Shown here one piece after another: positions 11,150-63,400 of a stretch of DNA of 64,000 nucleotides. The position numbers were made by a program, and so were the translations under genes. The notes beneath the pieces are model-generated. The model did not search any database and was not told the DNA's origin. It saw nothing but the letters and a program-made list of their open reading frames with translations. The stretch lies in the NCBI RefSeq assembly GCF_963921235.1, contig NC_086108.1, positions 66,032,001 to 66,096,000 on the forward strand, read 5' to 3'. Each line of letters starts with the position of its first letter. The first letter of the stretch is position 1. The stretch is from Mobula hypostoma (Eukaryota).

Positions 11150-11250
11150 GCTAATTGAAGCACTGACACAATGAGGGCAAATAGGGTGGCGCCAGCCTCC
11201 TTTTGCTCTGACATATAAACCAGGTGGCGTCAGTTCAACACCTGATCCCG
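11150..11250 (+). promoter_or_regulatory. Probable FOXE1 core promoter with TATA box
   Basis: TATAAA at 11214-11219, about 135 nt upstream of the ATG at 11352. A second TATAAA lies at 11057-11062. The TSS cannot be determined from sequence alone. Confidence 0.5.
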
Positions 11251-11351
11251 GCCTCTTCGGTAGCAAGCATTACGCCGGACTGCCCAGAGCAGACCTCAGG
11301 CTGAAGTTTATGAATCTAACCGACATCTCGTACTTTACTGGCGCATGCACC

Positions 11352-12554
11352 ATGACTGCAGAGTCTCAGCAGTCACCCACCGAAGCCTCCACCGCTTCGG
11401 TGCCCCTGGAGAGCTCAGCGGATATATCACTGGAGACTCCGGGGAAGAACGAGGTGATGGTCAAATCGGAGCCGCAGGGCAGCACGCCGATCACGGAGAG
11501 AGAGGACGAAGAAATTGGGGACATTGAAGGACTCATCCCCACTTCAGGAAGCAGGAGGAGGAAGCGCCCTATCCAACGCGGTAAACCTCCTTACAGTTAC
11601 ATCGCTCTTATCGCCATGTCCATTGCCAACTCGCCAGAAAGAAAGCTGACGCTTGGAGGAATTTACAAGTTTATAATGGACCGGTTCCCATTCTATAGGG
11701 AAAATTCCAAAAAGTGGCAAAATTCCATAAGGCACAACCTAACGCTCAATGATTGTTTTGTGAAGATCCCCCGTGAACCCGGGCGCCCCGGGAAGGGCAA
11801 TTACTGGACGCTAGACCCGGCAGCTGAAGATATGTTCGATAACGGAAGCTTTTTACGTCGGAGGAAACGTTTCAAGCGCTCAGACATCACTACTTACCCA
11901 GGTTACATGCAGAATTCCAGTGCCTTCACCCCCACTCCGGTTGGGAGACCTTCCTATCCCAATGCACTGTATCCCAGCGTGTGTTCGGCCTATAGCCCGC
12001 AGGTCCACAGCAGTAGCCACAACCCGGCCATGCTGCATCCCTACCAGGGGGCAGCGGTTAGTCAGGCCCAACACAGGATGTTCAGTATTGACAATCTCAT
12101 CGGGCCACAATCCGTTTTGCAGGCTTCATCGGGGATTGACTTAAACTCTCACTTAAACGGAGATATTGGACCAATGGTCAGTTGCTCTATTGGCGGAGTG
12201 GACGTTTCCAGTTTTCAACCACAGTCCGCCAGCCCTACTGGGTCCGGGGCAGGGGCCGGGGCCGGGTTGAACAGGTCTTCCAACAGCATTACTTCTAATA
12301 CGACCTATTCGTATTCTGCATCCCCTCCTCACCTATCTATATCTCAAGCCAGCTACTCTGCCAATAACACCCAGATGTACTGTCCTTCCAATCGACTTGC
12401 CATGCCGCCCATGAGACCCAACTCCTGCTCAGATCACAGCGATCAGCTTTTGGGTTTATCCAACCATCAGATGAACGGACTTGCACAGTTCAATGCCAAT
12501 AATTCATACATGCGACAAGCAAACTGTGCACCCGCCCTTGACAGATTCATGTAG
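11352..12554 (+). CDS. FOXE1: Forkhead box protein E1 (thyroid transcription factor 2), single-exon gene
   Basis: Uninterrupted ORF 11310-12554. The strong-Kozak start gcaccATGa at 11352 gives the N-terminus MTAES, as in tetrapod FOXE1. Forkhead domain [22 protein letters not shown]...[35 protein letters not shown]...[17 protein letters not shown] is FoxE class, and the KRSD.T/STYP extension favours FOXE1 over FOXE3. eh1-like FSIDNLI at 12081-12101. Confidence 0.92.
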
Positions 12555-17689: not shown

Positions 17690-18918
17690 TGCACATCAAT
17701 GCTCAAGTCCTTAAATGGATACACAGTAGAGAGCATCCTAACATGCTGCATCATTGAATGGTACAGAAACTGCAACGTGGTGGAAACTGCAAGGCTCTAT
17801 ATTTGTAGCCAAAACTGCCAAACGAATCTACGGCACCAGTACCCACCATCAAGGACATATAGAAACATAGAAACATAGAAACATAGAAAATAGGTGCAGG
17901 AGTAGGCCATTCGGCCCTTCGAGCCTGCACCGCCATTTATTATGATCATGGCTGATCATCCAACTCAGAACCCAGCCTTCCCTCCATACCCCGTGACCCC
18001 TGTAGCCACAAGGGCCATATCTAACTTCCTTTTAAACATAGCTAATGAACTGGCCTCAACAGTTTGCTGTGGCAGAGAATTCCACAGATTCACCACTCTC
18101 TGTGTGAAGAAGTTTTTCCTAACCTCGGTCCTAAAAGGCTTCCCCTCTATCCTCAAACTGTGACCCCTCGTTCTAGACCTCCCCAACATCGGGAACAATC
18201 TTCCCGCATCTAGCCTGTCCAATCCCTTTAGGATCTTATACGTTTCAATCAGATCCCCCCTCAATCTTCTAAATTCCAACGAGTACAAGCCCAGTTCATC
18301 CAGTCTTTCTTCATATGAAAGACCTGCCATCCCAGGAATCAATCTGGTGAACCTTCTTTGTACTCCCTCTATGGCAAGGATGTCTTTCCTCAGATTAGGG
18401 GACCAAAACTGCACACAATACTCCAGGTGTGGTCTCACCAAGGCCTTGTACAACTGCAGTAGTACCTCCCTGCTCCTGTACTCGAATCCTCTCGCTATAA
18501 ATGCCAGCATATATACAAAAGATGCTGGAAAAAAAGCCAGCAACATCATAAAGGATCCCACCCACTCTGCTCATGGACTGTTTGCCCCACTCTCAACAGG
18601 GAGGAGGCTATGTACTCTAGTATCCACACCAGGACCACCAGACTCAAAAACAGTTACTTTCCTCAAGCAGTAAGGCTGAACAATGCCTCCACGAACTACC
18701 CATTCCACCACAACTCCCACTACCACTACTTTATCATTTTCAGTCAGTCAGCTTATGTATAGACATTCCTGTGCCTAACATCATGGACATATAATCAATT
18801 TATGTATTTTGTTCATTGTCTTTTCTTATGTGCTGCATCAGATCTGGATTAACAATTATTTAGTTCTACCTTACAATTCTGTACTGGAAATGACATTAAA
18901 CAATCTTGAATCTTGAAT
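17690..18918 (+). mobile_element. Rex1/Babar-type LINE 3' fragment, interrupted by a CR1
   Basis: KKASNIIKDPTH.AHGLF.PL..GRR motif typical of the Rex1 C-terminus. Tail attaaacaatcttgaatcttgaat. Confidence 0.7.
17862..18507 (-). mobile_element. Young CR1 family B 3' fragment
   Basis: Open ORF2 C-terminus (17965-18510), (TTTCTATG)3 tail, and CATATA at 17856-17861 and 18508-18513. Confidence 0.93.
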
Positions 18919-20646: not shown

Positions 20647-21033
20647 TAGACCATAAGACCATAAGATACGGGAGCATAATTAGGCCATTTGGCCCATGAA
20701 GTCTGCTCCACCATTTCATCATGGCTGATTCAGTTTTTCTTTCAGCCCCAATCTCTTACCACTCCCCCCTCCACCTCACTGTATCCCTTCATGCTCTGAC
20801 CAATTAAGAATCTTTCAATCTCTGTCTTAAATGCACATAAAGACTTAACCTCCACAGCTGCATGTGGCAAAGAATTCCACAGATTCACCACTCTCTGGCT
20901 AAAGAAATTCCACCTCATCTCCATTCTAAAAGGATGCCCTTCTATTCTGAGGTTGTGTCCTCTTGTCTTAGACTCTCTCACCAGAGGAAAGATCCTCTTT
21001 ACATCCACTCTAACAAGGCCTTTCACCATTCGA

Positions 21034-21188
21034 AAACACAAACACGAGGAAATCTGCAGATACTGAAATTTCAAGCATTTCAAGCAAGTGTTAGTCCTGA
21101 TGAAGGGTCTCAGCCAGAAACGTCAATTGTACCTCTTCCTAGAGATGCTGCCTGGCCTGCTGCGTTCACCAGCAACTTTTATGTGTTG
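21034..21188 (+). mobile_element. Penelope-derived ~155-bp inverted mini-element with hammerhead motif
   Basis: 14-bp TSD CTTTCACCATTCGA at 21020-21033 and 21189-21202. Homologous to the 3' end of the PLE at 24613-24750. Hammerhead core at 21093-21128. Confidence 0.85.
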
Positions 21189-21945
21189 CTTTCACCATTC
21201 GATAAGTTTTAATGAGGTCACCCCTCATTCTTCTGAATTCCAGTGAATACAGGCCCAGAGCCATCAAATGATCTCCACATGACAAGCCATTCAGTCCTCG
21301 AATCATTTTTGTGAACCTCCTTTGTACCCTCTTTAGTTTCAGCACATCCTTATTAAGATAAGGGCCCAAAACTGCTCACAATACTCCAATTGAGGCCTTA
21401 CCAGTGCTTTATGAAATCTCAACATTACATCTTTGCTCTTATATTCTAGTCCTCTTGAAATAACATCACATTTGCCTTCCTCACCACAGACTCAACCTGC
21501 AAATTAACCTTTAAGGAATCTGTACAAGAGCTCCCAAGTCCAGTTGCACCTCAGGTTTTCGTATTTTTGCTCCATTTAGACAATAGTCAACCCTTTCATT
21601 TCTTCTACCAAAATGCATGATCATACCACTTCCTGACACTATATTCCAGCTGCCACTTCTTTGCCTATTCTCCTAATCTGTCTAAGTCCTTCTATAGTCA
21701 CTCTACTTCCTCAAAACTACCTGCCTTTCCACCTAATTTCGTATTGTCTGCAAACTGCAACAAAACCATCAATTCCATCATCCACATCATTGACATATAA
21801 TGTAAATAGAACTGGTCCCAACACAGACCCCTGTGGAACAACACTAGTCACCAGCAGACAACCAGAAAAGGCTCCCTTTATTCCCTTTATTCCCACTCTT
21901 TGGCTTCTGCCAATCAGCCACTGCTTTATCCACGCTAGAATCTAT

Positions 21946-22962
21946 CCACAAGGCTCAGTGCTGGGACCCCAGTTGTTTACAATATATATTAATGACTTGG
22001 ATGAGGGAATTAAATGCAGCATCTCCAAGTTTGCGGATGACACGAAGCTGGGTGGCAGTGTTAGCAGTGAGGAGGATGCTAAGAGGATGCAGGGTGACTT
22101 GGATAGGTTGGGTGAGTGGGCAAACTCATGGCAGATGCAATTTAATGTGGATAAATGTGAAGTTATCCACTTTGGTGGCAAAAATAGGAAAACAGATTAT
22201 TATCTGAATGGTGGCCGATTAGGAAAAGGGGAGGTGCAACGAGACCTGGGTGTCATTATACACCAGTCATTGAAAGTGGGCATGCAGGTACAGCAGGCGG
22301 TGAAAAAGGCGAACGGTATGCTGGCATTTATAGCGAGAGGATTCGAGTACAGGAGCAGGGAGGTACTACTGCAGTTGTACAAGGCCTTGGTGAGACCACA
22401 CCTGGAGTATTGTGTGCAGTTTTGGTCCCCTAATCTGAGGAAAGACATCTTTGCCATAGAGGGAGTACAAAGAAGGTTCACCAGATTGATTCCTGGGATG
22501 GCAGGTCTTTCATATGAAGAAAGACTGGATGAACTGGGCTTGTACTCGTTGGAATTTAGAAGATTGAGGGGGGATCTGATTGAAACGTATAAGATCCTAA
22601 AGGGATTGGACAGGCTAGATGCGGGAAGATTGTTCCCGATGTTGGGGAGGTCTAGAACGAGGGGTCACAGTTTGAGGATAGAGGGGAAGCCTTTTAGGAC
22701 CGAGGTTAGGAAAAACTTCTTCACACAGAGAGTGGTGAATCTGTGGAATTCTCTGCCACAGCAAACTGTTGAGGCCAGTTCATTAGCTATGTTTAAAAGG
22801 AAGTTAGATATGGCCCTTGTGGCTACAGGGGTCAGGGGATATGGAGGGAAGGCTGGGTTCTGAGTTGGATGATCAGCCATGATCATAATAAATGGCGGTG
22901 CAGGCTCGAAGGGCCGAATGGCCTACTCCTGCACCTATTTTCTATGTTTCTATGTTTCTATG
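21946..22962 (+). mobile_element. Young CR1 family B, 5'-truncated, open reading frame
   Basis: Uninterrupted frame from PQGSVLGP/KFADD to the stop at 22863, then a (TTTCTATG)3 tail. Confidence 0.94.
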
Positions 22963-24029
22963 TAATACTATGGCTCGTAGCCTGTTAAGCAGCCTCATGT
23001 GTGGCAACTTGTCAAAGGCCTTCTGAAAATCCAAATACACAACATCACCAATTCTCCTTTGTCTATCCTGCTTGTTATTTCCTCAAAGATTTGTCAGGGA
23101 AGATTTTCCCTTGAGGAAACCATGCTGACTATGGCTTATATTATCATGTGCCTCCAAGTACCCCATAACCACATCCTTAACAATCGACTCCAACATCTTC
23201 CCACCACTGAGGTCAGACAAAATGGCCTATAATTTCTATTTTTTTCTGCCTCTCCCTTCTTGGAAGAGTGTAGTGACATTTGAAATTTTCCATTTTTCTG
23301 GAACCGTTCCAGAATTTAGTGGAGGGCCATCATTGTGGGGACCTGAGAGGCTGAGACAACTGAAACTTAATTGGAGATCCATCTACCATTTGCATGCCAC
23401 ATTCCCTGCAATAGTCAACTGAAAACAAATTAAGAAAGGTACTAGATGACTGTTTCCATGCTGTATACCTTGATCTGTTACCCAACAGAAGGCAAACAGG
23501 TGTTCGTACAAACCTTTGTGCCCCTGGTTAGAAAGCATACTGGTCCAAGAAAGGATCATGCTGCTCAGAGGAAGCATGAAAGTGATGAAAGCTCTGGTTT
23601 GACTCCGACAGTTTTTGCAGGCAAAATATCTGAGAAAGCTTCTGATATCTTAGTCAGGCATGTAGAAATGTAGCTTGGTTTTAAGCTGGAAGTGAGTTCA
23701 AGGAGCTTCAGGAATGTTGTGAGCACTCAGATTTTGTGAGTATAAAGAAACAGACTCCACTCGAGTGCATTAAGGTTATTGCATGACCTTCAAGTACGAG
23801 ACAAAAAGCTGCTTCTAAAAGCAGATGCAAAGACCCAGCTGGATGAATGGAAGGCCAAAAAGAAAAGAGTCAATGGAGATACAAAAACAGAGGATTCATC
23901 AGATGATGTTGTGGGTGAGGAAGCCAAGAGAGATCAGATCCTAAAGGAGGCAATAGAAGGATTAATAAGAGAATACTCCAGTGAACTAAATACACTTTCC
24001 CAAGAGCAAGATGAACAAACTAGAAGAAA

Positions 24030-24599
24030 TAAAAGGAAGGAGAAGAAAGGTGTTCAGAGTTGTCTTAACTGCTTCCTTCAGCCTCAGAATCAACTCCTAC
24101 AACCACCATGAAGGAGGCCCCAGAACTTGAGATTGTTTTCACAGCCACAGGTCTCACCTGCCAAGCAGAGTCATCCCCCTTGTCAGGAAAGATGATATCA
24201 TACCAGGGTGAGAAAGCCTCCACCACACCTGAATCAGGACAACTAAAAAATTTACTCTGCTGTGAATCTCTGTATAGTAGTTGTATTATATAGTATTCTC
24301 TGTATATAGTTGAGATGCACTCTTTAGTGAGTTGGAGCTTCTAGCTAAGTAGGGAGGCACGTTGTATATTTAATATTTCAGTAATATTTGAGTAATCTTG
24401 AGGTATGTTGTTGATTAAACATTCTTTGTTTAAGTAATTCATTATTGGCTGAATGTAAAAATATTTGAATTGCATATGTCATGACGCTGTCATGTGATAT
24501 GTGCGCACTTCGCATTAAGTAAAAAACAAACTGAGACTCACATATCTCGGCTCTCTTATTTTCCTTTAAATGAGTTCAAAATTTTGGAGTTACAAAACA
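24030..24599 (+). mobile_element. Probable Gypsy 3' end: post-integrase region, PPT and LTR at about 24360-24599
   Basis: Purine tract AGGGAGG at 24351-24357, followed by (c/t)GTTGT…ACA resembling the LTR start at 48473. Pro/Glu/Ser-rich degenerate coding sequence lies upstream. Confidence 0.5.
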
Positions 24600-24612
24600 G
24601 AAAAGGCAGGAA

Positions 24613-25340
24613 ACAACAGGAATTCTGCAGATGCTGGAAATTCAAGCAACACACATCAAAGTTGCTGGTGAACGCAGCAGGCCAGGCAGCATCTCTAGGA
24701 AGAGGTGCAGTCGACGTTTCAGGCCGAGACCCTTCGTCAGGACTAACTAAAGGAAGAGTGAGTAAGGGATTTGAAAGTTGGAGGGGGAGGGGGAGATCCA
24801 AAATGATAGGAGAAGACAGGAGGGGGAGGGATAGAGCCAAGAGCTGGACAGGTGATAGGCAAAAGGGGATATGAGAGGATTATGGGACAGGAGGTCCGGG
24901 AAGAAAGACGGGGGGGGGGAACCCAGAGGATGGGCAAGGGGTGTATTCTGAGGGACAGAGGAAGAAAAAGGAGAGTGAGAGAAGAATGTGTGTATAAAAA
25001 TAAGTAACAGATGGGGTACGAGGTGAGGTGGGGCCTTAGCGGAAGTTAGAGAAATTGATGTTCATGCCATCAGGTTGGAGGCTACCAGACGGAATATAAG
25101 GTGTTGTTCCTCCAACCTGAGTGTGGCTTCATCTTTACAGTAGAGGAGGCCGTGGATAGACATGTCAGAATGGGAATGGGATGTGGAATTAAAATGTGCG
25201 GCCACTGGGAGATCCTGCTTTCTCTGGCGGACAGAGCGTAGATGTCCAGCAAAGCAGTCTCCCAGTCTGCGTCGGGTCTCGCCAATATATAAAAGGCCAC
25301 ATCGGGAGCACCGGATGCAGTATATCACCCCAGTCAACTC
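24613..25340 (-). mobile_element. Penelope-like element 3' part: GIY-YIG endonuclease, pyrimidine-rich spacer and hammerhead
   Basis: GVIYCIRCSRCGLLYIGETRRRL..(R)F..H…LEEQHLI. 11-bp TSD AAAGGCAGGAA at 24602-24612 and 25341-25351. Confidence 0.9.
24709..24744 (-). ncRNA. Minimal type I hammerhead ribozyme, intact core
   Basis: The minus strand reads AGTC CTGACGA AGG GTCTCGG CCT GAAA CGTC GACT: stem I AGTC/GACT, core CUGANGA and GAAA, stem II AGG/CCT, palindromic ACGU stem III and a GUC cleavage triplet. Confidence 0.8.
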
Positions 25341-25846
25341 AAAGGCAGGAATTTTCATTTCTTGATAAACTTTTTGTGGTGCTTGGACATAGTGATCTTG
25401 TCGCACTCATTTCCACGACCTGGAGCATCTAATGATTGTGCCAACCATTCTATTTACCAAGAGAGTTCCCCTCCATGATCCTGACCACAGTTTACGTACT
25501 GCCACAAGCTGATATTCAGCAGGCACCCAAGGTACTGAGTGCAGTGATTAACAATCAAGAAACAGCCTACCCTGACACCTTTCAAATCATTGTCGGGGAT
25601 GTCAGTCAGACTTGCTTGAAGATATCTCTGCCCAATTATCATCAACGTATCACCTGCAACACCAGGCATACAACAGACTTGACCACTGTTATATGATGAT
25701 TAGGGATGCCTACCATTCCATCCCTGGACAGCATTTTGTCTGTGCTCCTTCTACCTGTATACAGGCAGAGGGTGAAGGGCAAGACTCCAGTGAGTAGAAC
25801 AACAAAGAAGGTGTGTGGGCAGAGGAGTGGCTATGGGATTGCTTCA

Positions 25847-28800
25847 TAGAAACATAGAAAACCTACAGCACATTACAGGTCCATTGGCCCACAAAGTTGT
25901 GCCAAACATGTCCCTACCTTAGAAATTGCTAGGCTTACCTATAGCCCTCTGTTTTACTAAGCTCCATGTACCTATCCAAAAGTCTCTTAAAAGACCCTAT
26001 CGTATCCGCCTCCACCACCGTTGCCAGTAGCCCATTCCATGCACTCACCACTCCCTGAGTAAAAAACTCACCCCTGACATCTCCTCTGTTCCTACTCCCC
26101 AGCACCTTAAACCTGTGTCCTCTTGTGGTAACCATTTCAGCCCTGGGAAAAAGCCTCTGACTATCCACACAATTAATGCCTCTCATCATCTTATACACCT
26201 CTATCAGGTCACCTCTCATCCTCCGTCACTCCAAGGAGAAAAGGCCGAGTTCACTCAACCTGTTTTCATAAGGCATGCTCCCCAATCCAGGCAACATCCT
26301 TGTAAAGCAACACACATCAAAGTTGCTGGTGAACGCAGCAGGCCAGGCAGCATCTATAGGAAGAGGTACTGTCGACATTTCAGGCCGAGACCCTACGTCA
26401 GGACTAACTGAAGGAAGAATAAGTAAGAGATTTGAAAGGGGGAGGGGGAGATCCAAAATGATAGGAGAAGACAGGAGGGGGAGGGATGGAGCCAAGAGCT
26501 GGACAGGTGATAGGCAAAAGGGATATGAGAGGATCATGGGACAGGAGGTCCGGGAAGAAAGACAGGGGAGGGGGGGGATCCCAGAGGATTGGCAAGGGGT
26601 ATATTCAGAGGGATAGAGGGAGAAAAAGGAGAGTGAGAGAAAGAATGTGTGTATAAAAATAAGTAACAGATGGGGTACGAGGGGGAGGTGGGGCATTAGC
26701 GGAAGTTAGAGAAGTCGATGTTCATGCCATCAGGTTGGAGGCTACCCAGACGGAATATAAGGTGTTGTTCCTCCAACCTGAGTGTGGCTTCATCTTTACA
26801 GTAGAGGAGGCCGTGGATAGACATGTCAGAATGGGAATGGGATGTGGAATTAAAATGTGTGGCCACTGGGAGATCCTGCTTTCTCTGGCGGACAGGGCGT
26901 AGGTGTTCAGCAAAGCGGTCTCCCAGTCTGTGTCGGGTCTCGCCAATATATAAAAGGCCACATCGGGAGCACCGGACACAATATATCACCCCAGCCGACT
27001 CCTTGTAAATCTCCTCTGCACCCTTTCTATGGCTTCCACATCCTTCCTGTAGTGAGGTGACCAGAACTGAGCACAGTACTCAAGTGGGGTCTGACCAGGG
27101 TCCTATACAGCTGCAACATTACCTCTCGGCTCCTAAATTCAATTCCAGGATTGATGAAGGCCAATACACTGTATACCTTCTTAACCACAGATCAAGCTGC
27201 ACAGCTGCTTTGAGTGTCCTATGGACTCAGACCGCAAGATCCCTCTGATCCTCCACACTGTCAAGAGTCTTACCATTAATACTATATTCTGTCATCATAT
27301 TTGACCTACCAAAATGAACCACTTCACACTTATCTTTGTTGAACTCCATCTGCCACTTCTCAGCCCAGTTTTGCATTCTATCAATGTCCCGCTGTAACCT
27401 CTGACAGCCCTCCACACTATCCACAACACCTCCAACCTTTGCGTCATCAGCAAACTTACTAACCCATCCCTCCACTTCCTCATCCAGGTCATTTATAAAA
27501 ATCACAGAGAGTAAGGGTCCTACAACAGATCCCTGAGGTACTCCACTGGTGACCGACCTCCATGCAGAATATGACCCATCTACAACCACTCTTTGCTTTC
27601 TGTGGGCAACCCAGATCTGGATCCACAAAGCAATGTCCCCTTGGATCCTATGCCTCCTTATGTTCTCAATAAGCCTCGCATGCAGTATTTTATTGACTGC
27701 CTTGCTGAAAACCATATACGCTACATCTACTGCTCTTCCTTCATCAATGTGTTTAGTCACATCCTCAAAAAATTCAACCAGGTTCGTAAGGCACAGCCTG
27801 CCCTTGACAAAGCCATGCTGACTATTCCTAATCATATTATACCCCTCCAAATGTTCATAAATCCTGCCTCTCAGGATAATTTCCTGGGCTATCTCTGCTC
27901 CCTTTCTTGAATAAAGGAACAACATCCGCAACCTTCCAATCCTCCAGAACCTCTCCCATCCCCATTGATGATGCAAACAGCATCGCCAGCAGCTCATCAA
28001 TCTCCTCCGTCACCTCCCACAGTAGCCTGGGGTACATCTCATCCAGTCCCGGCGACTTATCCGACGATGCTTTCCAAAAGCTCCAGCACATCCTCTTTCT
28101 TAATATCTACATGCTCAAGCTTTTCAGTCTGCTGCAAGTCATCACTACAATTACCAAGATTCTTTTCCATAGTGAATACTGAAGTAAAGTATTCATTAAG
28201 TACCTCTGCTATTTCTTCTGGTTCCATACACACTTCCCCACTGTGACACTTGATTGGTCCTATTCTTTAGGTCTTATCCTCTTGCTCTTCACATACTTGT
28301 AGAATGCCTTGGGGTTTTCCTTAATCCTGCCCGCCAAGGCCTTCTCATGGCCCCTTCTGGCTCTCCTAATTTCCTTCTTAAGCTCCTTCCTATTAGCCTT
28401 TTAATCTTCTAGGTCTCTAACATTACCTAGCTCTCTGAACCTTTTGTAAGCTTTTCCTTTCTTCTTGACTAGATTTATTACAGCCTTTGTACACCACAGT
28501 TCCTGTACCCTACCATAACTTCCCTGTCTCATTGGAACGTACCTATGCAGAACTCTACACAAATATCCCCTGAACATTTGCCACATTTCTTCCGTACTTC
28601 TCCCCGAGAAAATCTGTTTCCAATTTACTCTTCCAATTTCCTGCCTGATAGCCTCATAATTCCCCTTACTCCGATTAAACACTTTTTAAAATTGTCTGTT
28701 ACTATCTCTCTCCAATGCTATTGTAAAGGAGATAGGATTATGATCACTATCTCCAAAATGCTCTCCCACCGAGAGATTTGACACCTGACCAGTTTAATTT

Positions 28801-30751
28801 CCCAATACCAAATCAAGTACAGCCTCTCCTCTTGTAGGCTTATCAACATATTGTGTCAAGAAACCTTCCTGAACACACCTAACAAACTCTACCCCATCTA
28901 AACCCCTTGCTCTAGGGAGATGCCAATTGATATTTGGGAAATTAGAAACTCCCATCAGGACAACTCTGTTATTATTACACCTTTCCAGGATCTGTTTCCG
29001 TATCTGCTCCTTGATATCCCTGTTACTAATGGGCGGCCTATAAAAAACACCCAGTAATGTTATTGACCCCTTCCTGTTCCTAACCTCCACCCACAGAGAC
29101 TCCGTAGACAATCCCTCCAAAGTGTCCACCTTTTCTGCAGCCGTGACACTATCTCTGATCAACAGTGCCATGCTCCCATCTCTTTTGCCTCCCTCTCTGT
29201 CCTTTCTGAAACATCTAAAACTCAGCACCTGAAGTAACCATTCCTGTTCCTGAGCCATCCAAGTCTCTGTAAAGGCCACCACATCATATCTCCAAGTACT
29301 GATCCACCCTCTAAGCTCATCTGCGTTGTTGACAACACTCCTTGCATTAAAATAGACACATCTCAAACCTTCAGTCTGAGTGCGTCCCTTCTCTATCACC
29401 TGCCTACCCTCCCTCTCGCATTGTCTACAAGCTTTCTCTGTTTGTGAGCCAATCTCCTCTTCCCCAGTCTCTTCAGTTCGGTTCCCACCCCCCAACAGTT
29501 CTAGCTTAAACTCTCCCCAGTAGCTTTAGAAAACCTCCCGCCAGGATATTGGTCCCTTGGGATTCAAGTGCAACCCGTCCTTTTTGTACAGGTCACACCT
29601 GCCCCGAAAGAGGTCCCAATGATCCAGAAATCTGAATCCCTGCCCCCTGCTCCAATCCTTCAGCCACACATTTATCCTCCACCTCATTCTATTCCTATTC
29701 TTACTGTCGCGTTGCACAGGCAATAATCCCGAGATTACTTCCTTTGTGGTCCTGCTTCTCAACTTCCTTCCTAACTCCCTGTAATATTTTTTCAGGACCT
29801 CTTCCCTTTTCATACCTATATCATTGGTACCAGTATGTACCACAACTGCTGACTGTTCTCCCTCCCACTTCAGGTTATCTTGGACGCGATCTGAAACATC
29901 CCAGACCCTGGCACCTGGGAGGCAAATTACCATCCGAGTTTCTTTCTTGTGTCCACAGAATCACCTGTCTGACCCCCTAACTATAGAGTCCCCTATCACT
30001 ATTGCCTTCCTCTTCCTTTCGAGCTGAGCCACAGGGCCAGACTCTTTGCCAGAGGCACGGCCACTGTCACTTACTCCAGGTAGGCTGTCCCCCCCCCCCA
30101 ACAGAACTCAAACAGGAGTACTTATTGTCAAGGGGTACAACCACAGGGGTACCTCTAGTTTCTGACTCTTCCCCTTCCCCCTCCTGACTGTGACCCACTT
30201 GTCTGTCTCCCGTGGCCCCGGTGTGACCACCTGCCTATAACTCCATTCTATCACCTCCTCGCTCTCCCTGACCAGGCGAAGGTCATCAAGCTGCAACTCC
30301 AGTTCCCCAACTCGGTCCCTTAGGAGCTGCCGCTCGACACACCTGGTGTAGATGTGGCCGTCCCGGAGGGTGGGAGACTCCAGGATCTCCCACATCTGAC
30401 ACCGAGCACAGAAAAATGGCCTCACGCACAGACTTCCTCCTTTCTGTAAATAACATGGTAAACCTACCTCGCCTAGTCCCGTTACCGCCTAAGCCCATTG
30501 AGGCCAAAGCCCTATCACTCTGCTGCCCGCTGGATATGGCGGTCTTCTTTTTAAACCTTTCGTGCTCTACTGGCTGATGTCACGCGCCTGTGCAGTCTCG
30601 CCTCTCTTTTACCCCGAGTAGTAAAAAGCTGATTTTGCTCCGGAAATCAGCCATCCACTCACAGCCTTCTTGCTCCGAATCAAAAACTGTTGAAGATTCC
30701 TTGCCTTTTTAAACATTTCATGCTTGTCACGTGCCTGCACAATCTCACCTC
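25847..30751 (-). mobile_element. Nearly full-length CR1 LINE, family A (ORF1 and ORF2), inactivated
   Basis: ORF1 Cys-motif N-terminus (CARCQMWE, 30108-30425) and SGNH-esterase domain (CLPGA, VVHTGTND, DGLHL; 29526-29933). APE endonuclease (YFNARS, FTETW, LDLVLGN; 28794-29495). RT (27227-28000) and (TTTCTATG)n tail. CTTCA at 25842-25846 and 30752-30756. Confidence 0.93.
26307..26999 (-). mobile_element. Penelope-like element 3' part inserted in the CR1
   Basis: Open GIY-YIG domain GVIYCVRCSRCGLLYIGET…QPDGMNIDFSNFR* (26696-26992). 10-bp TSD TCCTTGTAAA at 26297-26306 and 27000-27009. Mutated hammerhead at 26370-26405. Confidence 0.92.
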
Positions 30752-31023
30752 CTTCAATTATACCATTGCCTGAGAAGAACATGGTGACCTGCCTCAATGA
30801 CTGTTGTCCAGTGGCACTTACATCCCCTGTGATGAAGTGCTTTGAGAGGTTGGTGTTGAAACATGTCAACTTCTGCTTGCTTGGATCTGCTCCAATTTGC
30901 CTATCACCACAGCTGGTCAACAGCAGATGCCGTTTTATTGGCTCTTTACTCAACCCTGGAACATCTAGACAGTGAAGATACATACATCAGGATGCTCTTC
31001 ATTGACTACAGCTCAGCATTCAA

Positions 31024-32290
31024 TAGAGTCATAGAGTCATAGAGAAGTAGAACAAAGAAACAGGCCCTTTGTCCCATCTAGTCCATGCCTAAACTATTTA
31101 AACTGCCTACTCCCATTGACCTGCATCAGGACCATAGCTCTCCACATCCGTACTATCCATGTATCTATCCAAACTTCTCTTAAATGTTGAAATTGAACTT
31201 GTATGCACCACTTGTGCTGGCAGCTTATCCCACAGGCTCATGACCCTCTGAGTGAAGAAGTTTCCCCTCATGTTCCCCCTAAAACTTTTTGCCTTCCACC
31301 CTTAAGCCATGACCTCTGGTTGTACCCCCACCCAACCTCAGTGGAAAAACATGCTTGCTTTTACCTTCATAATTTTGTATCCCTCTATCAAATCTCCTCT
31401 CAATCTTCTATGTTCTAAAGAATATAGTCCTAACCTGTTCAATTTTTCCTTATAACTCAGATCCTTCAAACTCAGCAACATCCTTGTAAATTTTCTCTGC
31501 ACTCTTTCAACTTTGTTTACATCTTTCGAGTAGGTAGGTGACCAAAATTGCACAAAATTCTCCACATCACTAAGCACAGGCCTCCAGTCAAAGAGGCAAC
31601 CCTCTACTATCACTCTCTGTCTTCTCCCACAAAGCCAATGTCTACTCCAATTTACTACTTCATCTTGAATGCCAAATAACTGAACCTTCTTGACCATCCT
31701 TCCATGTGGGACTCTGTCAAATGCCTGATATAAGCACCTCAATTGTTCTTACTAGCCTATACCTGCTATGCCCCTCCTTTTTCTCTTAACCAGGGCCTCA
31801 ATATCTCTTGAAAACCAAGGATCTCTGCAATCATTATTTTTACCTTTTATTCTGTCAGGCACATACAAGCTTTGTACTCTCAAAATTTTGTTTTCGAAGG
31901 CCACCCACTTTCTAAGTACACCTTTGTCGGAGAACAGCCTGTCCCAATTCACACTTGCCAGATCATTTCCAATACCATCAAAATTGGCTTTTCTCCGATT
32001 TACAGTCTCAACCCATGGACCAGACCTATCATTCTGCATACTTACTTCGAAACTAATGGCATTGTGGTCACTGGATTCAAAGTGCTCCTCTGCACAAACT
32101 TCTGTCATCTGCCCTGTCTCATTCCCTAAGAGCAGATTCAGTATCGCATGCTCTCTTGTTGGGACTTTTACATCCTGATGAAAGAAAGAAAGTTCCTTGA
32201 ACACATTTGACAAACCTTATCCCATCTAGTTCTTTTTACAGTATGGGATTCCCGGTCAATAAATGGAAAGTTAAAATCACCTACTATAAC
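31024..32290 (-). mobile_element. Multiply deleted CR1 LINE, family D
   Basis: (ATGACTCT)n tail. EN remnant (PTREHAILNLLLGN, SDHN) is joined to RT and C-terminal remnants (AFDRVPH, VQFWSP). CAAT occurs on both flanks. Confidence 0.8.
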
Positions 32291-34133
32291 AATCTATCAT
32301 CCCCTTAAAGTTAATCAATAAGCAAAATCTGGGACTCAATACCTCCTTGTGCAACTGGTTCCTGGAAATCCTGATTTGCAGACCCCTGTTCTAACCACTT
32401 CATACATTTGATTGTGAGGTGAAGCACAGCCCTGATACCATATTTAAGTTTGCTGATGACTCCACTGTCACTGGCTGAATCAAAGGTGGTGATGATTCAG
32501 AATATAGGAGAGAGATTGAAAATCTGTCTGAATAGTGCCGCAACAACAGCCTCTCACTCAATGTCAGCAAGACCAAGAAGCTGATTATTGACCACATGAG
32601 GAAGAGATATGCCAGTCCATGTCAGGGGAATTAGAGGTGGAAAGTGTCACCAACTTGAAATTCCTCTGTGCTTTCATTTCAGAAGATCTGTCCTGAATCC
32701 GACATGTAAGAGCCACCACAAACAAAGCACAGCAGCACTTCTACTTTCTTAGCTTATGAAAATTCGGCATGTCATCAAAAACTGACAAACTTGTATAGAT
32801 GTGTGGTGGAGAGTATATTGACTGGTTGCAACACAGCCAGGTATGGAAACATCAATACTCTTCAATCGAAGAGCCGACAAAAAGCCTGCTTTACTGGTAA
32901 AGTCCTTCCCACCACTGGGCATATGTACATGGAGTGCTGCCGCCAGAAAGCAGCATCCATCATCGGGGACCCCCCCACCATCCAGGCCATACTCTCTTCT
33001 CACTGCTGCCATCAGAATGGAGGTACAGGAGCCTCAGGAGCCACACCATCGGAATCAGGAACAGTTACTACCCATCAACCATCCAGCTCTTGAACCGAGG
33101 TGGTGAGGGGTGGGGAGAATACCACTCGATCTCACTCCCTCCAACAGTGAACTTTCCCCACAACCTATGGACTCACTTTCAAGGACTCTTCATCTCGTTT
33201 TTGATATTAATTACTTATTTATTTATTATCATTATTTTGTTTTTTTTGTTTCTTTGTATAGATAGATAGACATACTTTATTGATCCTGAGGGAAATAGGG
33301 TTTCGTTACAGTTGCAGCAACCAATAGAGTATAAATATAGCAATATAAAACCATAAATAATCAATAATATGTAAATTATGCCAGATGGAAATAAGTCCAG
33401 ACTGAGAAAATGAATCTCAGGGTTGTATATAGTGACATACATGTACTTCAATAATAAATTCACTTTGAACTTTAGACTGGGTTTTTCTTTTGGCAACCCT
33501 GATAGCTTTAGAGAGATTCGATGGTCGTGATGGAATCTGGAACCTCAGCTCAAAGAGGCTTCCACTGGACTTAAATGTCAAATCATAACTTAAATCTCAA
33601 TTTGCTGGTGCTAATATAACAGACTTTGGAGCTTTATGTTAAAATTTAGCTTCATGAATTCATCAGTGCCAATAACAGGTTTGGTGAATCTCTACACAAT
33701 AATGTTTTAGTACAAATAAGCATAAATACAAATATTTCCCAAGTATGAGTGAGATTGGGAAAGAATGGCAGGGAGGAACCCAAGACCTAGTTTGCAAATC
33801 CAAGACAAGTAACAATCTGCAAGACAGATGTAATGATTTTGGATAGTAACACAATATCTGAAAACCCTATTTATTCAGTAAAATGTTGAAACACATTAGA
33901 AGAAATCACAATTGTGTGTTAACTTGTTGAATACGATTTAAAATAAATTTGTTTTGTATTTTTTAAAATAATTTAAATAAAATCAATAAACTAGGTACAA
34001 ACTGAATACAGAAACATGGATAATGCAAGCCCATATTAACGGTGTCATAATAATGATCACTTCTTGTTGTATTTAGCCCTTAGGATAGAGAAGAAACCTA
34101 CATATAGCACAAAAGCAACCTGTACTTTAATCA

Positions 34134-34288
34134 ACACACATAAAAGTTGCTGGTGAACGCAGCAGGCCAGGCAGCATCTCTAGGAAGAGGTGCAGTCGAC
34201 GTTTCAGGCCGAGACCCTTCGTCAGGACTAACGAAGTTTTGTGTGTGTTGCTTGAATTTCCAGCATCTGCAGAATTCCTGTTGTTTGT
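34134..34288 (-). mobile_element. Penelope-derived ~155-bp inverted mini-element with intact hammerhead
   Basis: 14-bp TSD CTGTACTTTAATCA at 34120-34133 and 34289-34302. The PLE 3' segment is on the minus strand, followed by an inverted terminal tail. Confidence 0.88.
34194..34229 (-). ncRNA. Minimal type I hammerhead ribozyme, identical to 24709-24744
   Basis: Plus strand agtcgacgtttcaggccgagacccttcgtcaggact, the same 36 nt as at 24709-24744. Confidence 0.8.
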
Positions 34289-34813
34289 CTGTACTTTAAT
34301 CATCTTTTTCTTGTTTACCAAAGACAAATACTGATCCGGATGGCAGACAGGAGAGAAAAAGAGTTAAAGCTCATACTGGATTTTAAGTGCTGCACACATT
34401 TCTGGCCATCATATTGCAGGAAAGATGTGATTGCATTAGAGAGGTTCCAGTGAAGTTTTACCCGGATATTGAGAAGACTTTTTTTTTTGTTAAGAGGTCT
34501 GGCTAGGCTAAGTTTATTTCCCTTGAACAGAGATTGAGCAAACATTTAATTGAGGTGTGTAAGGATAAGAGAGGCATGAAGAGAATGGTTGGAGGGATTT
34601 ACTTCCATAAGCAGTGAAGTCAATAATGAGTAGGCTGAACTTTAAAATAATTGGCAGAAGGATTAGGATGAATTAAGTATGTTTTTTTTTAACCTTACCT
34701 GGTGTGCATGCTGGAAGTTTGGAACTCATTTTCTGAAAAAATTGAGTGATACAGCACAGAAATAACCTCTTCAGAGCTCTGAATCTGCACCGTAAAGTAC
34801 CCTTTTACACTAA

Positions 34814-35335
34814 TCAAAGTTCAAAGTATATAAATTATCTAAGTATGTGTACTATATATAACCTTGAGATTCATCTCCTTACAGGCAGCCACAAAACAAA
34901 GAAATCCAATAGGACCCATTAAAAAAAGACCGTCAATCAGCCAATGTGTAAAAAAAACAGATTATGCAAACAGTAAGTCAAATAATATTCAGGCCTAAAG
35001 TTCATGAAAGTGAGTTCACAGCCACGAACAACAGGAATTCTGCAGATGCTGGAAATTCAAGCAACACACATCAAAATTGCTGGTCATCACTGCAGCTAGT
35101 TTAAGAGCCCACAGCTTCAGTTCAGTACAGAGATGAGTAAACCCTGCTGAGCAGTGAGCTGAACTCTAGCCCATTCCTTGCCTCCGGCCCCAACATCCTA
35201 ACCTTTTTACAAACGTAATTTGACCCAGTGCTTAAAATGGGCAAACATCAGCTGGTTCTTCATTCTCAGACCCAGGCTCTGCCACTTCAAAATGCTCTCG
35301 GGCCCAGGTCCACTGCCTTGATTTGGCAGTTCATG
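34814..35335 (-). mobile_element. Non-coding retroposon with Rex1-like (AACTTTG) tail, carrying a PLE tail fragment at about 35025-35083
   Basis: Tail caaagttcaaagt…aaccttgagattcat is similar to 20341-20400. 35025-35083 matches 24612-24670. Confidence 0.5.
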
Positions 35336-37704: not shown

Positions 37705-39682
37705 TGGATGAGTATGCTGTAGTTGTTACCGACTTATTAAAACCATGTGTGGATGAGTGTGTGCCTTCAAAGACTTGCTGTACATTCCCAAACCAAAAAC
37801 TGTGGATGAACCAGGATGTATGTCATCTGCTGAAGGCTAGATCTGGGTCATTCAAGGCTGGTGACCTAAATCTGTACCAGAAAACCAGGTCTGACTTGTG
37901 GAGGGCTATTTCAAGGGCGGAGACAATTTTGAACGAGGTTGGAGGTGACATCGGATGTACGACAACTCCAGCAGGTTTGCAAGACATTACTTCCTACAAG
38001 TGAAACCCAGTAGCATGAATGGCAGTGCTGCTTCACTACCAGATGATCTCAATGCCTTCTATGCCCAGTTTGAAGGGGAGAACATAACTACAGCTGTGAA
38101 GATCTCTGCTGCACCCAGTGATCCTGTGATCTCTATCTCAGAGGCTGATGTCAGGCTGCCTTTAAAGAGGGTGAACCCTCGCAAGGTGGAAGGCCCTGAC
38201 AGAGTACCTGGTAAGGCTCTGAAAACTTGCACCAACCAAGTGGCAGGAGTATTCAAGGATATTTTCAACCTCTCACTGCAACAGGAAGATGCTCCCACTT
38301 CTTACAAAAAGGCAACAATTATACCAGTGCCTAAAAAGAATAATATGAGCTGCCTTAATAACTATCACCCAGTAGCACTCTCATCTACAGTGATGAAATG
38401 CTTTGAGAGTTTGGTTGTGACTAGACTGAACTCCTGCCTCAGCAAGGACCTGGATCCACTGCAGTTTGCCTATCGCCACAATAGGTCAACGGCAGATACA
38501 ATCTCAATGGCTCTTCACATGGCCTTAGACCTCCTGTTCAATACAAACACCTATGTCAGGATGCTGTTCATTGACTACAGCTCAGCATTTAATGACACCA
38601 TTCCCACAATCCTGATTGAGAAGTTGCAGAACCTGGACCTCTGTACCCCCCTCTGCAATTGGATCCTTGGCTTCCTAACTGGAAGACCACAATCCGTACA
38701 GATTGGTGATAATATCTCCTCCTCGCTGATGATCAACACTGGTGCACCTCAGGGGTGTGTGCTTAATCCACTGCTCTACTCTCTCTATACACATGACCGT
38801 GTGGTAGGCATAGCTCAAATACCATTTATAAATTTGCTGATGATACAACCATTGTTGGTAGAATCTCGGGTGGAGAGGAGAGGGCTACAGGAGTGAGATA
38901 TATCAACTAGTGGAGTGGTGTCTCAGCAACAATCTTGCACTCTATGTCAGTAAGTCGAAGGAGTTGACTATGGATTTCAGGAAGGGTAAGACAAAGGAAC
39001 ACATACCAATGCTCATAGAGGGATCAGAAGTGAAGAGAGTGAGCAGTTTCAAGTTCCTGGGTGTCAAGATCTCCGAGGACCTAACCTGGTCCCAATATAT
39101 CGATGCAGCTATAAAGGCAAGACAGCAACTATACTTCATTAGGAGTTTGAAGAGATTTGGAATGTCAACAAAACCGCTCAAAAGCTTCTACAGATGTACC
39201 ATGGAGAGCATTCTGACAGGCTGCATCACTGTCTGGTATGGGGAGGCTACTGCACAGGACCGAAAGAAGCTGCAGGGGGTTGTAAATTTAGTTGGCTCCA
39301 TCTTGGGTACTAGCCTACAAAGTACCCAGGATATTTTCAAGGAACGGTGTCTCAGAAAGGCAACATCCATCATTAAGGACAGCTAGCACTCGGGATATGC
39401 ACTTCTCTTTGTTACCATCAAGTGGGAGGTTCGGAGGCCTGAAGGCACACACTCAGTGCTTCAGGAACTGTTTCTTCTCCTCTGCCATTTGATTCTTAAA
39501 TGGACATTGAAGCTGTGAACACTACCTCACTTTGAGATATTATTTCTGTTTAATCTATTCAATATACATATATGGTCATTGATTTATTTATTATTACTTC
39601 TTCTATATTTTGTATTGAACTGCTGCTGCTAAATTAACAAATTTCACAACACATGCCAATGATAATAAACCTGATTCTGATT
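37705..39682 (+). mobile_element. Rex1/Babar LINE, RT region and 3' end
   Basis: [28 protein letters not shown] and TGAPQGCVLNPLLYSLYT (ORF 37955-38896), frameshifted at KFADD. C-terminal ORF 38910-39386 and tail aataaacctgattctgatt. Confidence 0.9.
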
Positions 39683-55639: not shown

Positions 55640-55740
55640 TCAAACAAAAATACCGGAAAAACTCCACAAGGCAGGCAGCATCTGTGGAGAGAGAAATAAA
55701 GTCAACATTTCAGGTTGATGACACTTCATCTGATCTGGAA
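55640..55740 (-). mobile_element. Old Penelope 3'-end remnant with decayed hammerhead
   Basis: Minus strand …CAGATGA AG TGTCATCAA CCT GAAA TGTT GACT followed by cagatgctgcctgcc, colinear with the younger copies. Confidence 0.55.
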
Positions 55741-59197: not shown

Positions 59198-59410
59198 TAA
59201 ACACAAGAGATTCTGCAGATGATGGAAATTCAGAATAACTCACACAAAAATAATGCTGGATTTACTCAACAAGTCAGGCAGCATCTACGGAAAGAAATAG
59301 AGTCGATATTTCAGGCCGAGAATGGTCTCAGCCCAAACATCGACTCTTTATTCATGTCCATAGATGTGGCCCGACATGTTGAGTTCCTCCAGCATTTTGT
59401 GTGTATTACT
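59198..59410. mobile_element. Old palindromic Penelope-derived element
   Basis: Two PLE 3' arms joined back-to-back at about 59320 (gagtcgatatttcaggccgaga / ggtctcagcccaaacatcgactc). Confidence 0.7.
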
Positions 59411-60488
59411 GCAATCCTTAAGTGCTATTTGAGCACTGACACTCTGTAATTTTCAGTGATGCCCTAATTCACATCTATGGATCACACATATCTATTGTGA
59501 AGGGAAATACAAAATAGACTAAAGGTTGGTGATATTACACCAATGAGTTGTCTATAAAATATTGTAGCGTGATGCATCATTCAGCACTACAGTTCAAATG
59601 TGAACAGGGCCTACAATTCAAAATGTGTCGTAGTGTTTGTCTGTGTGCTATGCTGTACAATTTAACTTCAATGACATGGAGTATGGTGGTTTCTGCTGGA
59701 AATACCAGCATTTCTCAATGTAAGTGCTAAATTCTCAGATAAGTTTAAAGACCCCAGCATGAGTGGAAGTCTCAAATTTATTGGTGGATTTCAAAAATCC
59801 AACTTTGTTTTACTGCTGTGCTCACACAGAGCCCAAAAATAAACCAAAGGTTTGCTGTGCTTCTTTAGTATTTATGTAAGGAAGTTTGCACTTGGACGTC
59901 ATGCCAGATCTGGCGTAGTGTGCACATTTCATTGGGGTTTGTAGGACTGTGGGAAAGAAAGAGAAGAATAAGGTAAGTGACACATTTTATCAATCATTTA
60001 TTTGGATTAATGATTGTAATTATTTATAAGTATTTTAAACTAATGTAAATATGGAGTTATAAGTTTTTTATATTTTAAAATGAATTCCTTCTTTTTAAAT
60101 ATTTTAAATGCTTCTGAAGGAAAGAGACATCAAAATCATTAGAAATCTTTGACTCCTTTAATGGATGGAAGAGTTCAGTAGGTTGGACCTGTTCCACCCC
60201 ATCAATTTTGCTTTATTACATTACTTGGGGTCCTGCCAGTTCTATCCAGGCCAGCAGGATTGGCTTGCCTCACTTGGTAAAGTTGAGGAAATGAAAAATA
60301 TCGGTGGTAAGTGTGGGCATCTGGGCTATTGATAAAAGTGCCATAAAAATAGATCATTACTGTGGAAACCTTCAAAACAAACAACCTTTTGATGACCACA
60401 GCATTTCAGGGTTTCCATGTTAAATTAATCAGTAAGGAAATCCCTCAGTCATGAATTAATATTTGTGGAAGTTAATAGTGGTCATTAT

Positions 60489-63400
60489 TAGAACATAGAA
60501 CAGTACAGCACATTACAGGCCCTTCGGCCCACAATGTGGTGCTGACCCTCAAACCCTGCCTCCCATATAATCCCCCACATTAAATTTCTCCATATACCTG
60601 TCTAGTAGTCTCTTAAACTTCACTAGTGTATCTGCCTCCACCACTGACTCAGGCAATGCTTTCCACGCACCAACCACTCTCTTAGTAAAAACCTTCCTCT
60701 AGTATCCCCCTTGAACTTCCCACCCCTTACCTTAAAGCCATGTCCTCTTGTATTGAGCAGTGGTGCCCTGGGGAAGAGGCACTGGTTATCCACTCTATCT
60801 ATTCTTCTTAATATCTTGTAACCTCTATCATGTCTTCTCTCATCCTCCTTCTCTCCAAAGAGTAAAGCCCTAGCTCCCTTAATCTCTGATCATAATGCAT
60901 ACTCTCTAAACCAGGCAGCATCCTGGTAAATCTCCTCTGTACCCTTTCCAATGCTTCCACATCCTTCCTGTAGTGAGGTGACCAGAACTGGACACAGTAC
61001 TCCAAGTGTGGCCTAACCAGAATTTTATACAGCTGCATCATTACATCGTGACTCTTAAACTATATCCCTTGACTTTTGAAAGCTAACACCCCATAAGCTT
61101 TCTTAACTACCCTATCTACCTGTGAGGCAACTTTCAGGGATCTGTGGACATGTACCCCCAGATCCCTCTGCTCCTCCACACTACCAAGTATCCTGCCATT
61201 TACTTTGTATTCTGCCTTGGAGTTTGTCCTTCCAAAGTGTACCACCTCACACTTCTCCAGGTTGAACTCCATCTGCCACTTCTCAGCCCACTTCTGCATT
61301 CTATCAATGTCTCTCTGCAATCTTCAACAATCCTCTACACTATCTACAACACCACCAACCTTTGTGTCGTCTGCAAACTTGCCAACCCACCCTTCTACCC
61401 CCACATCCAGGTCGTTAATAAAAATCACGAAAAGTAGAGGTCCCAGAATAGATCCTTGTAGGACACCACTAGTCACAACCCTCCAATCTGAATGTACTCC
61501 CTCCACCATGACCCTCTGCCTTCTGCAGACAAGCCAATTCTGAATCCATTTTGCCGAACTTCCCTGGATCCCATGCCTTCTGACTTTCTGAATAAGCCTA
61601 CCGTATGGAACCTTGTCAAATGCCTTACTAAAATCCACGTAGATCACATCCGCTGTACTATTCTCATCTATATGCCTGGTCACCTCCTCAAAGAACTGTA
61701 TCAGACTTGTTAGACACAATCTGCCCTTCACAAAGCCATGCTGACAGTCCCCGATCAGACCATGATTCCCTAAATGCCCATAGATCCTATCTTTAAGAAT
61801 CTTTTCCAACAGCTTTCCCACCACACATATAAGGCTCACTGGTCTATAATTATCCGGACTATCCCTGCTACCTTTTTTGAACAAGGGGACAATATTCGCC
61901 TCCCTCCAGTCCTCCGGTACCATTCCTGTGGACAATGAGGACATAAAGATCCTAGCCAGAGGCTCAGCAATCTCTTCCCTCAACTCGTGGAGCAGCCTGG
62001 GGAATATTCCAACAGGCCCCGGGGAATTATCCGTCCTGATGTATTTTAACAACTCCAACACCTCCTCTCCCTTAATATCAACATGCTCCAGAATATCAAC
62101 CTCACTCATATTGTCCTCACTGTCATCAAATTCCCTCTCATTGCTGAATACCGAAGAGAAGTATTCATTGAGGACCTCGCTCACTTCCACAGCCTCCAGG
62201 CACATATTCCCACATTTATCTCTAATTGGTCCTACCTTCACTCCTGTCATCCTTTTGTTCTTCACATAATTGAAGAATGCCTTGGGGTTTTCCTTTACCC
62301 TACTCACCAAGGCCTTCTCATGCCCCATTCTTGTTCTTCTCAGCCCCTTCTTAAGTTCCTTTCTTGCTTCCCTATATTCCTCAATAGACCCATCTGATCC
62401 TTGCTTCCTAAACCTCATGTATGCTGCCTTCTTCCACCTGACTAGATTTTCCACCTCACTTGTCACCCATGGTTCCTTCACCCTACCATTCCTTATCTTC
62501 CTCACTGGGACAAATTTATCCCTAACATCCTGCAAGAGATCTCTAAACATTGACCACATTTCCATAGTACATTTCCCTGCTAAAACATCATCCCAATTCA
62601 CACCCGCAAGTTCTAGCCTTATAGCCTCATAATTTGCCCTTCCCCAATTAAAAATTTTCCTGTCCTCTCTGATTCTATCCTTTTCCATGATAATGCTGAA
62701 GGCCAGGGAGCAGTGGTCACTGTCCCCCAGATGCTCACCCACTGAGAGATCTGTGACCTGACCCGGTTCGTTACCTAGTACTAGATCCAGTATGGCGTTC
62801 CCCCTAGCCGGCCTGTCCACATACTGTGACACTTTACGCCCTTTATTCTGCTTCTCTTTCCTCAAAGCCTCTCTATATGTTAGATCTGGCTTTACTCCAT
62901 GCACTTCTTTTACTGCTGTATCGCTTCAAGTCCCATCCCCCTTGCAAATTAGTTTAAACCCTCCCGAACCATGCTAGCAAACCTACCTGCAAGGATATTG
63001 CTCCCCCTCGAGTTCAGGTGCAACCCATCCAATCTGTACAGGTCCTACCTTCTCCAGAAGAGATCCCAATGATCCAAAAATCTAAAACCCTGCTCCCTGC
63101 ACCAACTCCTCAGCCATACATTCAACTGCCATCTCCTCCAATTCTTACCATCACTGTCACGTAGCACTGGCAGCAATCCTGAGAACGTCACCCTTGAGGT
63201 CCTGTTCTTCAGCCTTCTGCCTAGTTCCCGAAACTCACACTTCAGGACATCATCCCTCTTCCTGCCTATGTCATTGGTCCCAACATGTAGCACGCCTTCT
63301 GGTTGCTTTCCCTCTCGTACCAGGATGTCGTGCACCCCGTCAGAGACAACCCTGACTCTGTCACCCGGGAGGCAACAAACCATGCGGGTGTCCACAAAAT

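Follow-up and report, generated by a model that had tools for sequence, protein, structure and literature searches.

Within a 64-kb stretch of the genome of the ray Mobula hypostoma (contig NC_086108.1; hereafter the window), two identical 36-nt hammerhead motifs were found in separate, 5'-shortened insertions of an endonuclease-bearing Penelope-like element. The explanation that we hold to be very probable is that the 36-mer is a minimal hammerhead near the element's 3' end, likely cutting only as a pair within an active parent element's transcript and likely inert as a lone copy. Assignment to Penelope-like insertions follows from the order of GIY-YIG endonuclease end, 3' untranslated region (UTR), hammerhead, and tail, taken together with the target-site duplications (TSDs) of individual copies, their end points, and their inverted arms. 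Cleavage of the window motif is predicted, and catalysis is a candidate function.

Hammerhead motifs, carrier, and insertions

Both 36-mers lie on the minus strand and contain CUGACGA, GAAA, GUC, and a 4-bp helix I, arranged in the order of helix I strand AGUC, CUGACGA core, helix II region, GAAA, CGUC, and helix I strand GACU. A strict minimal-hammerhead descriptor applied to both strands of the window returned exactly these two sites, as compared to a mean of 0.0 sites in 200 simulated Markov-1 windows of 64 kb. When the descriptor was relaxed (U3-A8 core allowed, helix III insert of 0–8 nt), the same two sites were recovered and no further hammerhead family was detected in the window. An earlier, sequence-only reading of this DNA had described the two identical motifs as minimal type I hammerheads of a Penelope-like element, with a loop-less palindromic helix III (ACGU) that can form only between two copies and a predicted cut after GUC; each of these statements was borne out, the core being present in both copies and the carrier bearing GIY-YIG sequence. 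That reading also counted about six copies of the ribozyme, of which two remain, as the type I order of CUGANGA, GAAA, and NUH was found in two of the six motifs it listed. The four supposed variants (at 21093, 26370, 55700, and 59302) are indeed relatives by sequence (nhmmer E 6e-29 to 9e-4), but all four are broken as hammerheads, and no CUGANGA is present at 59302–59346, the seam of two head-to-head halves. An Rfam covariance-model scan of the window yielded no hammerhead among seven weak matches up to E=10.

The two long copies, near 24 and 26 kb, are 93% identical over 704 columns (47 differing columns), and in both of them the hammerhead lies about 290 nt past the GIY-YIG stop, which is the location of the pseudo-long terminal repeat (pLTR), 3' of the endonuclease gene. 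A tblastn extension of the 24-kb copy to 25388 was rejected as element sequence, as it runs beyond the TSD. The best relative of the open endonuclease fragment in the 26-kb copy (P0001) was M. hypostoma LOC134353856 (P0002; 94% identity), with Hypanus sabinus proteins next (29 matches among 76 candidates). LOC134353856 contains a YIDD reverse transcriptase (RT) motif and a C-x4-C-xx-C linker, and the closest relatives likewise have an RT motif (YIDD or a variant) and a C-x3/4-C-xx-C linker ahead of the endonuclease; the linker is present in P0002–P0006 and P0017 and truncated away in the window copies. One further relative, P0024, gave a weak RVT_1 match (E=0.0077), and tblastn detected no RT of the Penelope-like family in the window. 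A CX2-5CxxC linker between RT and endonuclease is described as a mark of the Neptune and Nematis clades (Craig et al. 2021, PMC8557442). Judged from these sequences, the carrier is probably a Neptune/Nematis-type Penelope-like retroelement, with linker and RT seen in its relatives only. Endonuclease-bearing elements of these clades, as presented in the same source, share with the window copies a C-terminal GIY-YIG domain, 5' truncation, an inverted partner, and a tail, and share the linker with the relatives; they differ in that linker and RT fall outside the window copies. Weak, short protein-profile matches in metagenome (4), prokaryote (4), and viral (1) contigs were dropped, as a loose core pattern was seen in three of the nine and none resembled the family; a degenerate motif scan of metagenome contigs returned 0 loci.

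Seven pieces of the family were recognized (Table 1), four of which have their own TSD of 10–14 bp; none was found for the other three. The older long interspersed nuclear element (LINE) that is split by the 26-kb copy has its halves rejoined in copies near 1.7 kb and 60.9 kb. Separate TSDs and rejoining LINE halves indicate independent insertions, neither a tandem nor the two ends of one element, and the 24-kb and 26-kb copies were accordingly rejected as two pLTRs of a single element, having separate TSDs and unrelated DNA between them. Copies here are solitary, 1.7–9.5 kb apart. Both 155-bp copies open with an inverted arm starting at the tail end, and a fold-back is present in one further piece (59 kb); the arm of the 34-kb copy (about 34238–34288) is the reversed tail end, 98% identical to 24611–24660 reversed. 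Two 3' end points recur about 33 nt apart, the intervening tail being kept in the 24-, 35-, and 59-kb pieces, with the 21-, 26-, and 34-kb copies ending ahead of it. An optional 30–40-nt tail and an inverted 5' partner are given as standard for the Penelope-like class (PMC8557442, PMC3846280). At the 5' side, the long copies share a junction within 2 nt (25340 and 27001) despite different TSDs, just ahead of the first GIY-YIG motif. The forward parts of the short copies both start 3 nt upstream of helix I (34232 and 21090), and their inverted-arm junctions differ.

The predicted cut site is intact, with both of its sides included, in 4/4 TSD-bounded copies, none of which starts or ends there. 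The templates were thus uncut or rejoined RNA, which fits the report that unprocessed RNA is the main substrate of PAc, the Poseidon element of Anolis carolinensis (Frangieh et al. 2024, PMC11167929). According to that study, PAc also has two internal RT start points bounding a 30–40-nt optional tail, both DNA strands are extended, and the pLTR hammerhead is carried into insertions by uncut templates. PAc differs from the window family in belonging to the Poseidon clade, without a zinc-finger linker, and in having its start sites in an AC-rich stem-loop, whereas the window ends, read on the hammerhead strand, are rich in UG. Cleavage assisted by protein has been demonstrated for PAc and would be a prediction for the window motif.

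Predicted folding and cleavage

The minimal motif was defined by Cervera and De la Pena (2014, PMC4209133), who described it in fish Xena, Poseidon, and Neptune elements, mostly as single copies. With this class the window motif shares the type I order, a short helix I, CUGANGA probably followed by one unpaired base, G10.1, GAAA, a loop-less palindromic helix III, NUH, a U-rich 5' flank, and occurrence mostly as single motifs in truncated elements; it differs in its short (4-bp), G-U-closed helix II. An Acropora Neptune row in that work has the same CUGACGAA-GGG...CGUC frame. By our count of its Fig. S3, the GAAA-CGUC ending occurs in 13/56 rows, so that any novelty implied earlier for the loop-less form is not supported, and a G-U pair closes helix II in 7/56; no cartilaginous fish is among the 56 rows. 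In place of the helix II register AGG/CCU proposed earlier, the likely one is GGGU/GCCU, which is 1.4 kcal/mol more stable and leaves an unpaired base after A9, as in the consensus of PMC4209133. The closing position 11.1 is a U here, forming a G-U pair and not the G10.1-C11.1 pair.

The palindromic 15.2/16.2 positions, ACGU, form no stable helix III in a monomer, and a nested double hammerhead can be built from two copies and given an energy. For the isolated 36-mer a rod of -10.0 kcal/mol was predicted, in which GACG of the core pairs with CGUC at a probability of 0.96–0.98. When at least 30 nt of flank were included, the probabilities of helix I, helix II, and core self-pairing were all 0.00–0.11. 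These are nearest-neighbor values, calculated for the window motif alone, that ignore core contacts and Mg2+. On this model a lone copy would have no easy path to the active fold and is likely inert. Core self-pairing as a special lock was rejected, given its probability of 0.00–0.11 in context and the same pairing potential in published motifs. The earlier expectation of a very high genome-wide number of potential self-cleaving RNAs holds for the abundance of the family (see below) but is overstated for self-cleavage, as the copies are solitary, helices I and II have probabilities of 0.00–0.11 in their flanks, and cleavage of published minimal motifs is poor even in dimers; for one Schistosoma motif, the monomer did not cleave and dimers and trimers did so at a low level (PMC4209133).

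These predictions bear on a second explanation, which we consider unlikely, although it is the most probable of the alternatives, namely that the element is the same but its motif no longer cuts in this lineage and serves instead as a signal, structural or protein-binding, or within the pLTR promoter, which would explain its conservation as a block. Self-pairing of the core in the isolated 36-mer and the predicted absence of hammerhead helices in context speak for it, as does the finding that no TSD-bounded copy begins or ends at the cut site; PAc core mutants are, moreover, reported to have no effect on insertion, and no RNA-seq reads to begin or end at the PAc site (PMC11167929). However, all core bases and both palindromes are kept in the two young copies, the same CUGACGA...GAAACGUC pairing potential exists in published motifs, for example of Acropora and Ixodes (PMC4209133), and the PAc motif does cut once protein is added, cleavage being reported only in its presence (PMC11167929). 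The in vivo role of Penelope hammerheads is stated to be open in both PMC8557442 and PMC11167929.

Conservation, abundance, and origin of the copies

Four public contig sets (of 24 listed runs) were aligned to 24560–25400 at 80% identity. The contigs placed numbered 47,921 of 22.2 million, 70,947 of 21.3 million, 16,697 of 1.74 million, and 8,843 of 0.86 million, these being assembly fragments and not copy numbers; by this measure several organisms clearly harbor the Penelope-like family at very high abundance. Among the best 24 of 2,696 rows of loose ends, five fell at the motif edges (24708 and 24743–24744), with 316, 430, 470, 60, and 24 contigs and from three of the four runs; further rows fell at 25041–25042, where the reading frame ends, and at the 1-nt gap of the 24-kb copy. 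No pile-up of ends was listed for these sets, which as contigs carry no information on RNA ends. Among the best 40 of 160 variant rows, none lay within 24708–24748, the nearest being at 24707 and 24749. Between the 24-kb and 26-kb copies, differences amounted to 3/36 in the motif, 15/306 in the GIY-YIG segment, 27 in 290 nt of UTR (counting gap columns), and 2/65 downstream. These counts indicate no protection of the motif after insertion. As far as such comparisons reach, the motif is a sharp-edged conserved block between subfamilies that decays like its flanks once inserted. Block conservation without protection of inserted copies implies that selection apparently acts on parent elements, not on insertions.

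The forward parts shared by the intact copies show two differences in 104 nt, and the identity of the two 36-mers is explained by youth; identity as a sign of selection was rejected on the same ground. This also bears on the notion that the host keeps the two intact copies as a cis-acting pair cleaving a long minus-strand transcript downstream of a forkhead gene, which is suggested by their identity, shared strand, and separation of 9,485 nt. We regard it as extremely improbable, since copies this young are expected to be identical over 36 nt, no known transcript covers both copies, and sister copies are decaying in the core.

The coincident starts of the copies raise the question of whether they are a non-autonomous derivative (a solo pLTR or a retrozyme-like unit) with fixed RNA ends and not random truncations. 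The long copies' common start is shared in spite of their different TSDs and 47/704 differing columns, with a probability of about 0.002–0.01 under uniform truncation over 0.5–3 kb, a figure computed after the fact, and the start 3 nt before helix I is common to the forward parts of both short copies. However, each coincidence involves n=2, the two short copies differ in their inverted-arm junctions, and relatives have no common start at the GIY-YIG residue, although gene models are a poor test. Nor is there a tandem array in the window, and retrozymes are defined as tandem units (bioRxiv 10.64898/2026.07.22.740005). Non-LTR retrozymes (PMC7229834; same preprint) have a type I hammerhead and a proposed Penelope-like origin in common with the window copies, but are described as tandem non-coding repeats making circular RNAs, whereas the window copies are solitary and TSD-flanked, two of them with endonuclease coding sequence. 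Retrozyme-type tandem units with a hammerhead each were not found in the window, where young copies have their own TSD and no neighboring unit. A derivative of this kind is accordingly judged improbable. Tandem retrozymes have been reported in one chondrichthyan genome (the 2026 preprint). Our literature search, which covered supplements in part, found no shark or ray description of a minimal Penelope-like hammerhead, and the family is not claimed to be unreported.

Under the favored explanation of separate shortened insertions, the element protein would nick DNA and begin reverse transcription at either of two sites inside the RNA, giving tailed or tail-less ends; priming on both strands would yield the inverted arms, and uncut RNA would be the usual template, all by analogy to PAc (PMC11167929). 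In a partial-tandem parent transcript, two motifs may swap strands, with ACGU:ACGU forming a 4-bp helix III and each helix I forming across copies; the element protein is probably needed as a chaperone, and the cut would fall after GUC. Selection would act on the parent elements, with inserted copies decaying neutrally. Several observations weigh against this explanation. Neither a full-length element nor a pLTR-ORF-pLTR tandem parent (ORF, open reading frame) is present in the 64-kb window, RT, linker, and tandem being known from relatives alone. The double-hammerhead dimer is predicted at -9.5 kcal/mol, as compared to 2 x -10.0 for two monomer rods and -28.3 for an inactive dimer. About two variant rows would be expected in the motif under an even spread, so that their absence alone is not significant; the loose-end and variant rows are the best-supported ones only, and the 80% identity filter favors conserved blocks. 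Finally, run X1 had no motif-edge row among its six listed.

Other window features and meaning for the family

Table 1. Pieces of the Penelope-like family, their hammerhead motifs, and TSDs in the window.
Feature	Position	Strand	Details
5'-truncated Penelope-like element copy (24 kb)	24613..25340	-	GIY-YIG gene end, pyrimidine-rich 3' UTR, hammerhead, downstream stem region, tail
TSD of 24-kb copy, 11 bp	24602-24612 and 25341-25351		Sequence comparison
GIY-YIG endonuclease remnant	25036..25340	-	1-nt gap frameshift near 25086; Pfam PF01541 E=0.0045, under curated cut-off
Intact minimal type I hammerhead motif	24709..24744	-	Predicted cut between 24713 and 24712
Optional tail, 33 nt, between two recurring 3' end points	24613..24645	-	Comparison of copies
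Second 5'-truncated copy (26 kb), tail-less	26305..27001	-	Inside older LINE; outer 2 nt at each end overlap TSD
TSD of 26-kb copy, 10 bp	26297-26306 and 27000-27009		Sequence comparison
Open C-terminal 101 aa of GIY-YIG endonuclease (P0001)	26696..27001	-	PF01541 E=3.9e-5, 24.3 bits (cut-off 22.6)
Mutated hammerhead	26370..26405	-	A9 to U, C15.2 to U, helix I without its last pair
155-bp copy with inverted arm (34 kb)	34134..34288	-	TSD 14 bp at 34120-34133 and 34289-34302; forward part begins 3 nt before helix I
Second intact minimal hammerhead motif, same 36 nt as 24709-24744	34194..34229	-	Descriptor and sequence comparison
155-bp copy with inverted arm (21 kb)	21034..21188	+	TSD 14 bp at 21020-21033 and 21189-21202; forward part begins 3 nt before helix I
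Core-retaining broken hammerhead	21093..21128	+	Closing pairs of helix I (G1.1 to A) and helix II lost
Tail-only fragment, seventh piece	35028..35095	-	No hammerhead; nhmmer E=1.9e-13; no TSD found
Old diverged relative, motif at 55700-55736	55657..55736	-	Broken core (CAGAUGA for CUGAUGA); nhmmer E=1.3e-4; no TSD found
Old head-to-head fold-back	59206..59415	.	Both halves start within helix II; nhmmer matches on both strands

Beyond the features of Table 1, a second copy inside the window exists for 37% of its length. For the old fold-back region 59230–59420 a long hairpin is predicted (-99.4 kcal/mol), which could give rise to double-stranded RNA if transcribed. Matches to RVT_1 or AP-endonuclease mark several LINE fragments, at 520–1590, 21637–22863, 27227–29525, 37949–38896, and 61324–62925. 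A 647-nt inverted repeat of LINE-like sequence (17865–18511 and 22317–22963) is 100% complementary over its two arms, 3,805 nt apart, and may stem from a duplication of very recent date, from gene conversion, or from the assembly itself. A single 459-aa frame, stop to stop, at 11175–12554 on the plus strand contains a Forkhead domain (Pfam E=1.7e-37) and looks FoxE-like. The ray gene models P0004, P0006, P0027, and P0030, which bear host-gene names (divergent protein kinase domain 1C, mucin-2, neuromedin-U receptor 1, and ABHD14A), hold pieces of the element, which suggests exonization or annotation errors.

A more far-reaching proposal, to which we assign little credence, is that short RNAs whose 5' ends are fixed, either where the GIY-YIG segment starts or at the outer edge of helix I, spread non-autonomously and that the hammerhead is a gated switch, self-paired when alone and opened in trans by a dimeric element protein. 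If this were true, with intact copies every few tens of kilobases, expression of the protein would cut host transcripts containing solo copies, and a strand bias of intact as compared to dead motifs would be left in introns.

On the favored explanation, that of separate insertions whose hammerhead likely cuts only as a pair in the parent transcript, the finding is correct but ordinary, giving a class known since 2014 one more example, from a cartilaginous fish. The family is young and very abundant and has TSD-bounded copies, so that its junctions and intronic strand bias could be counted as a genomic record of whether the ribozyme has ever cut.

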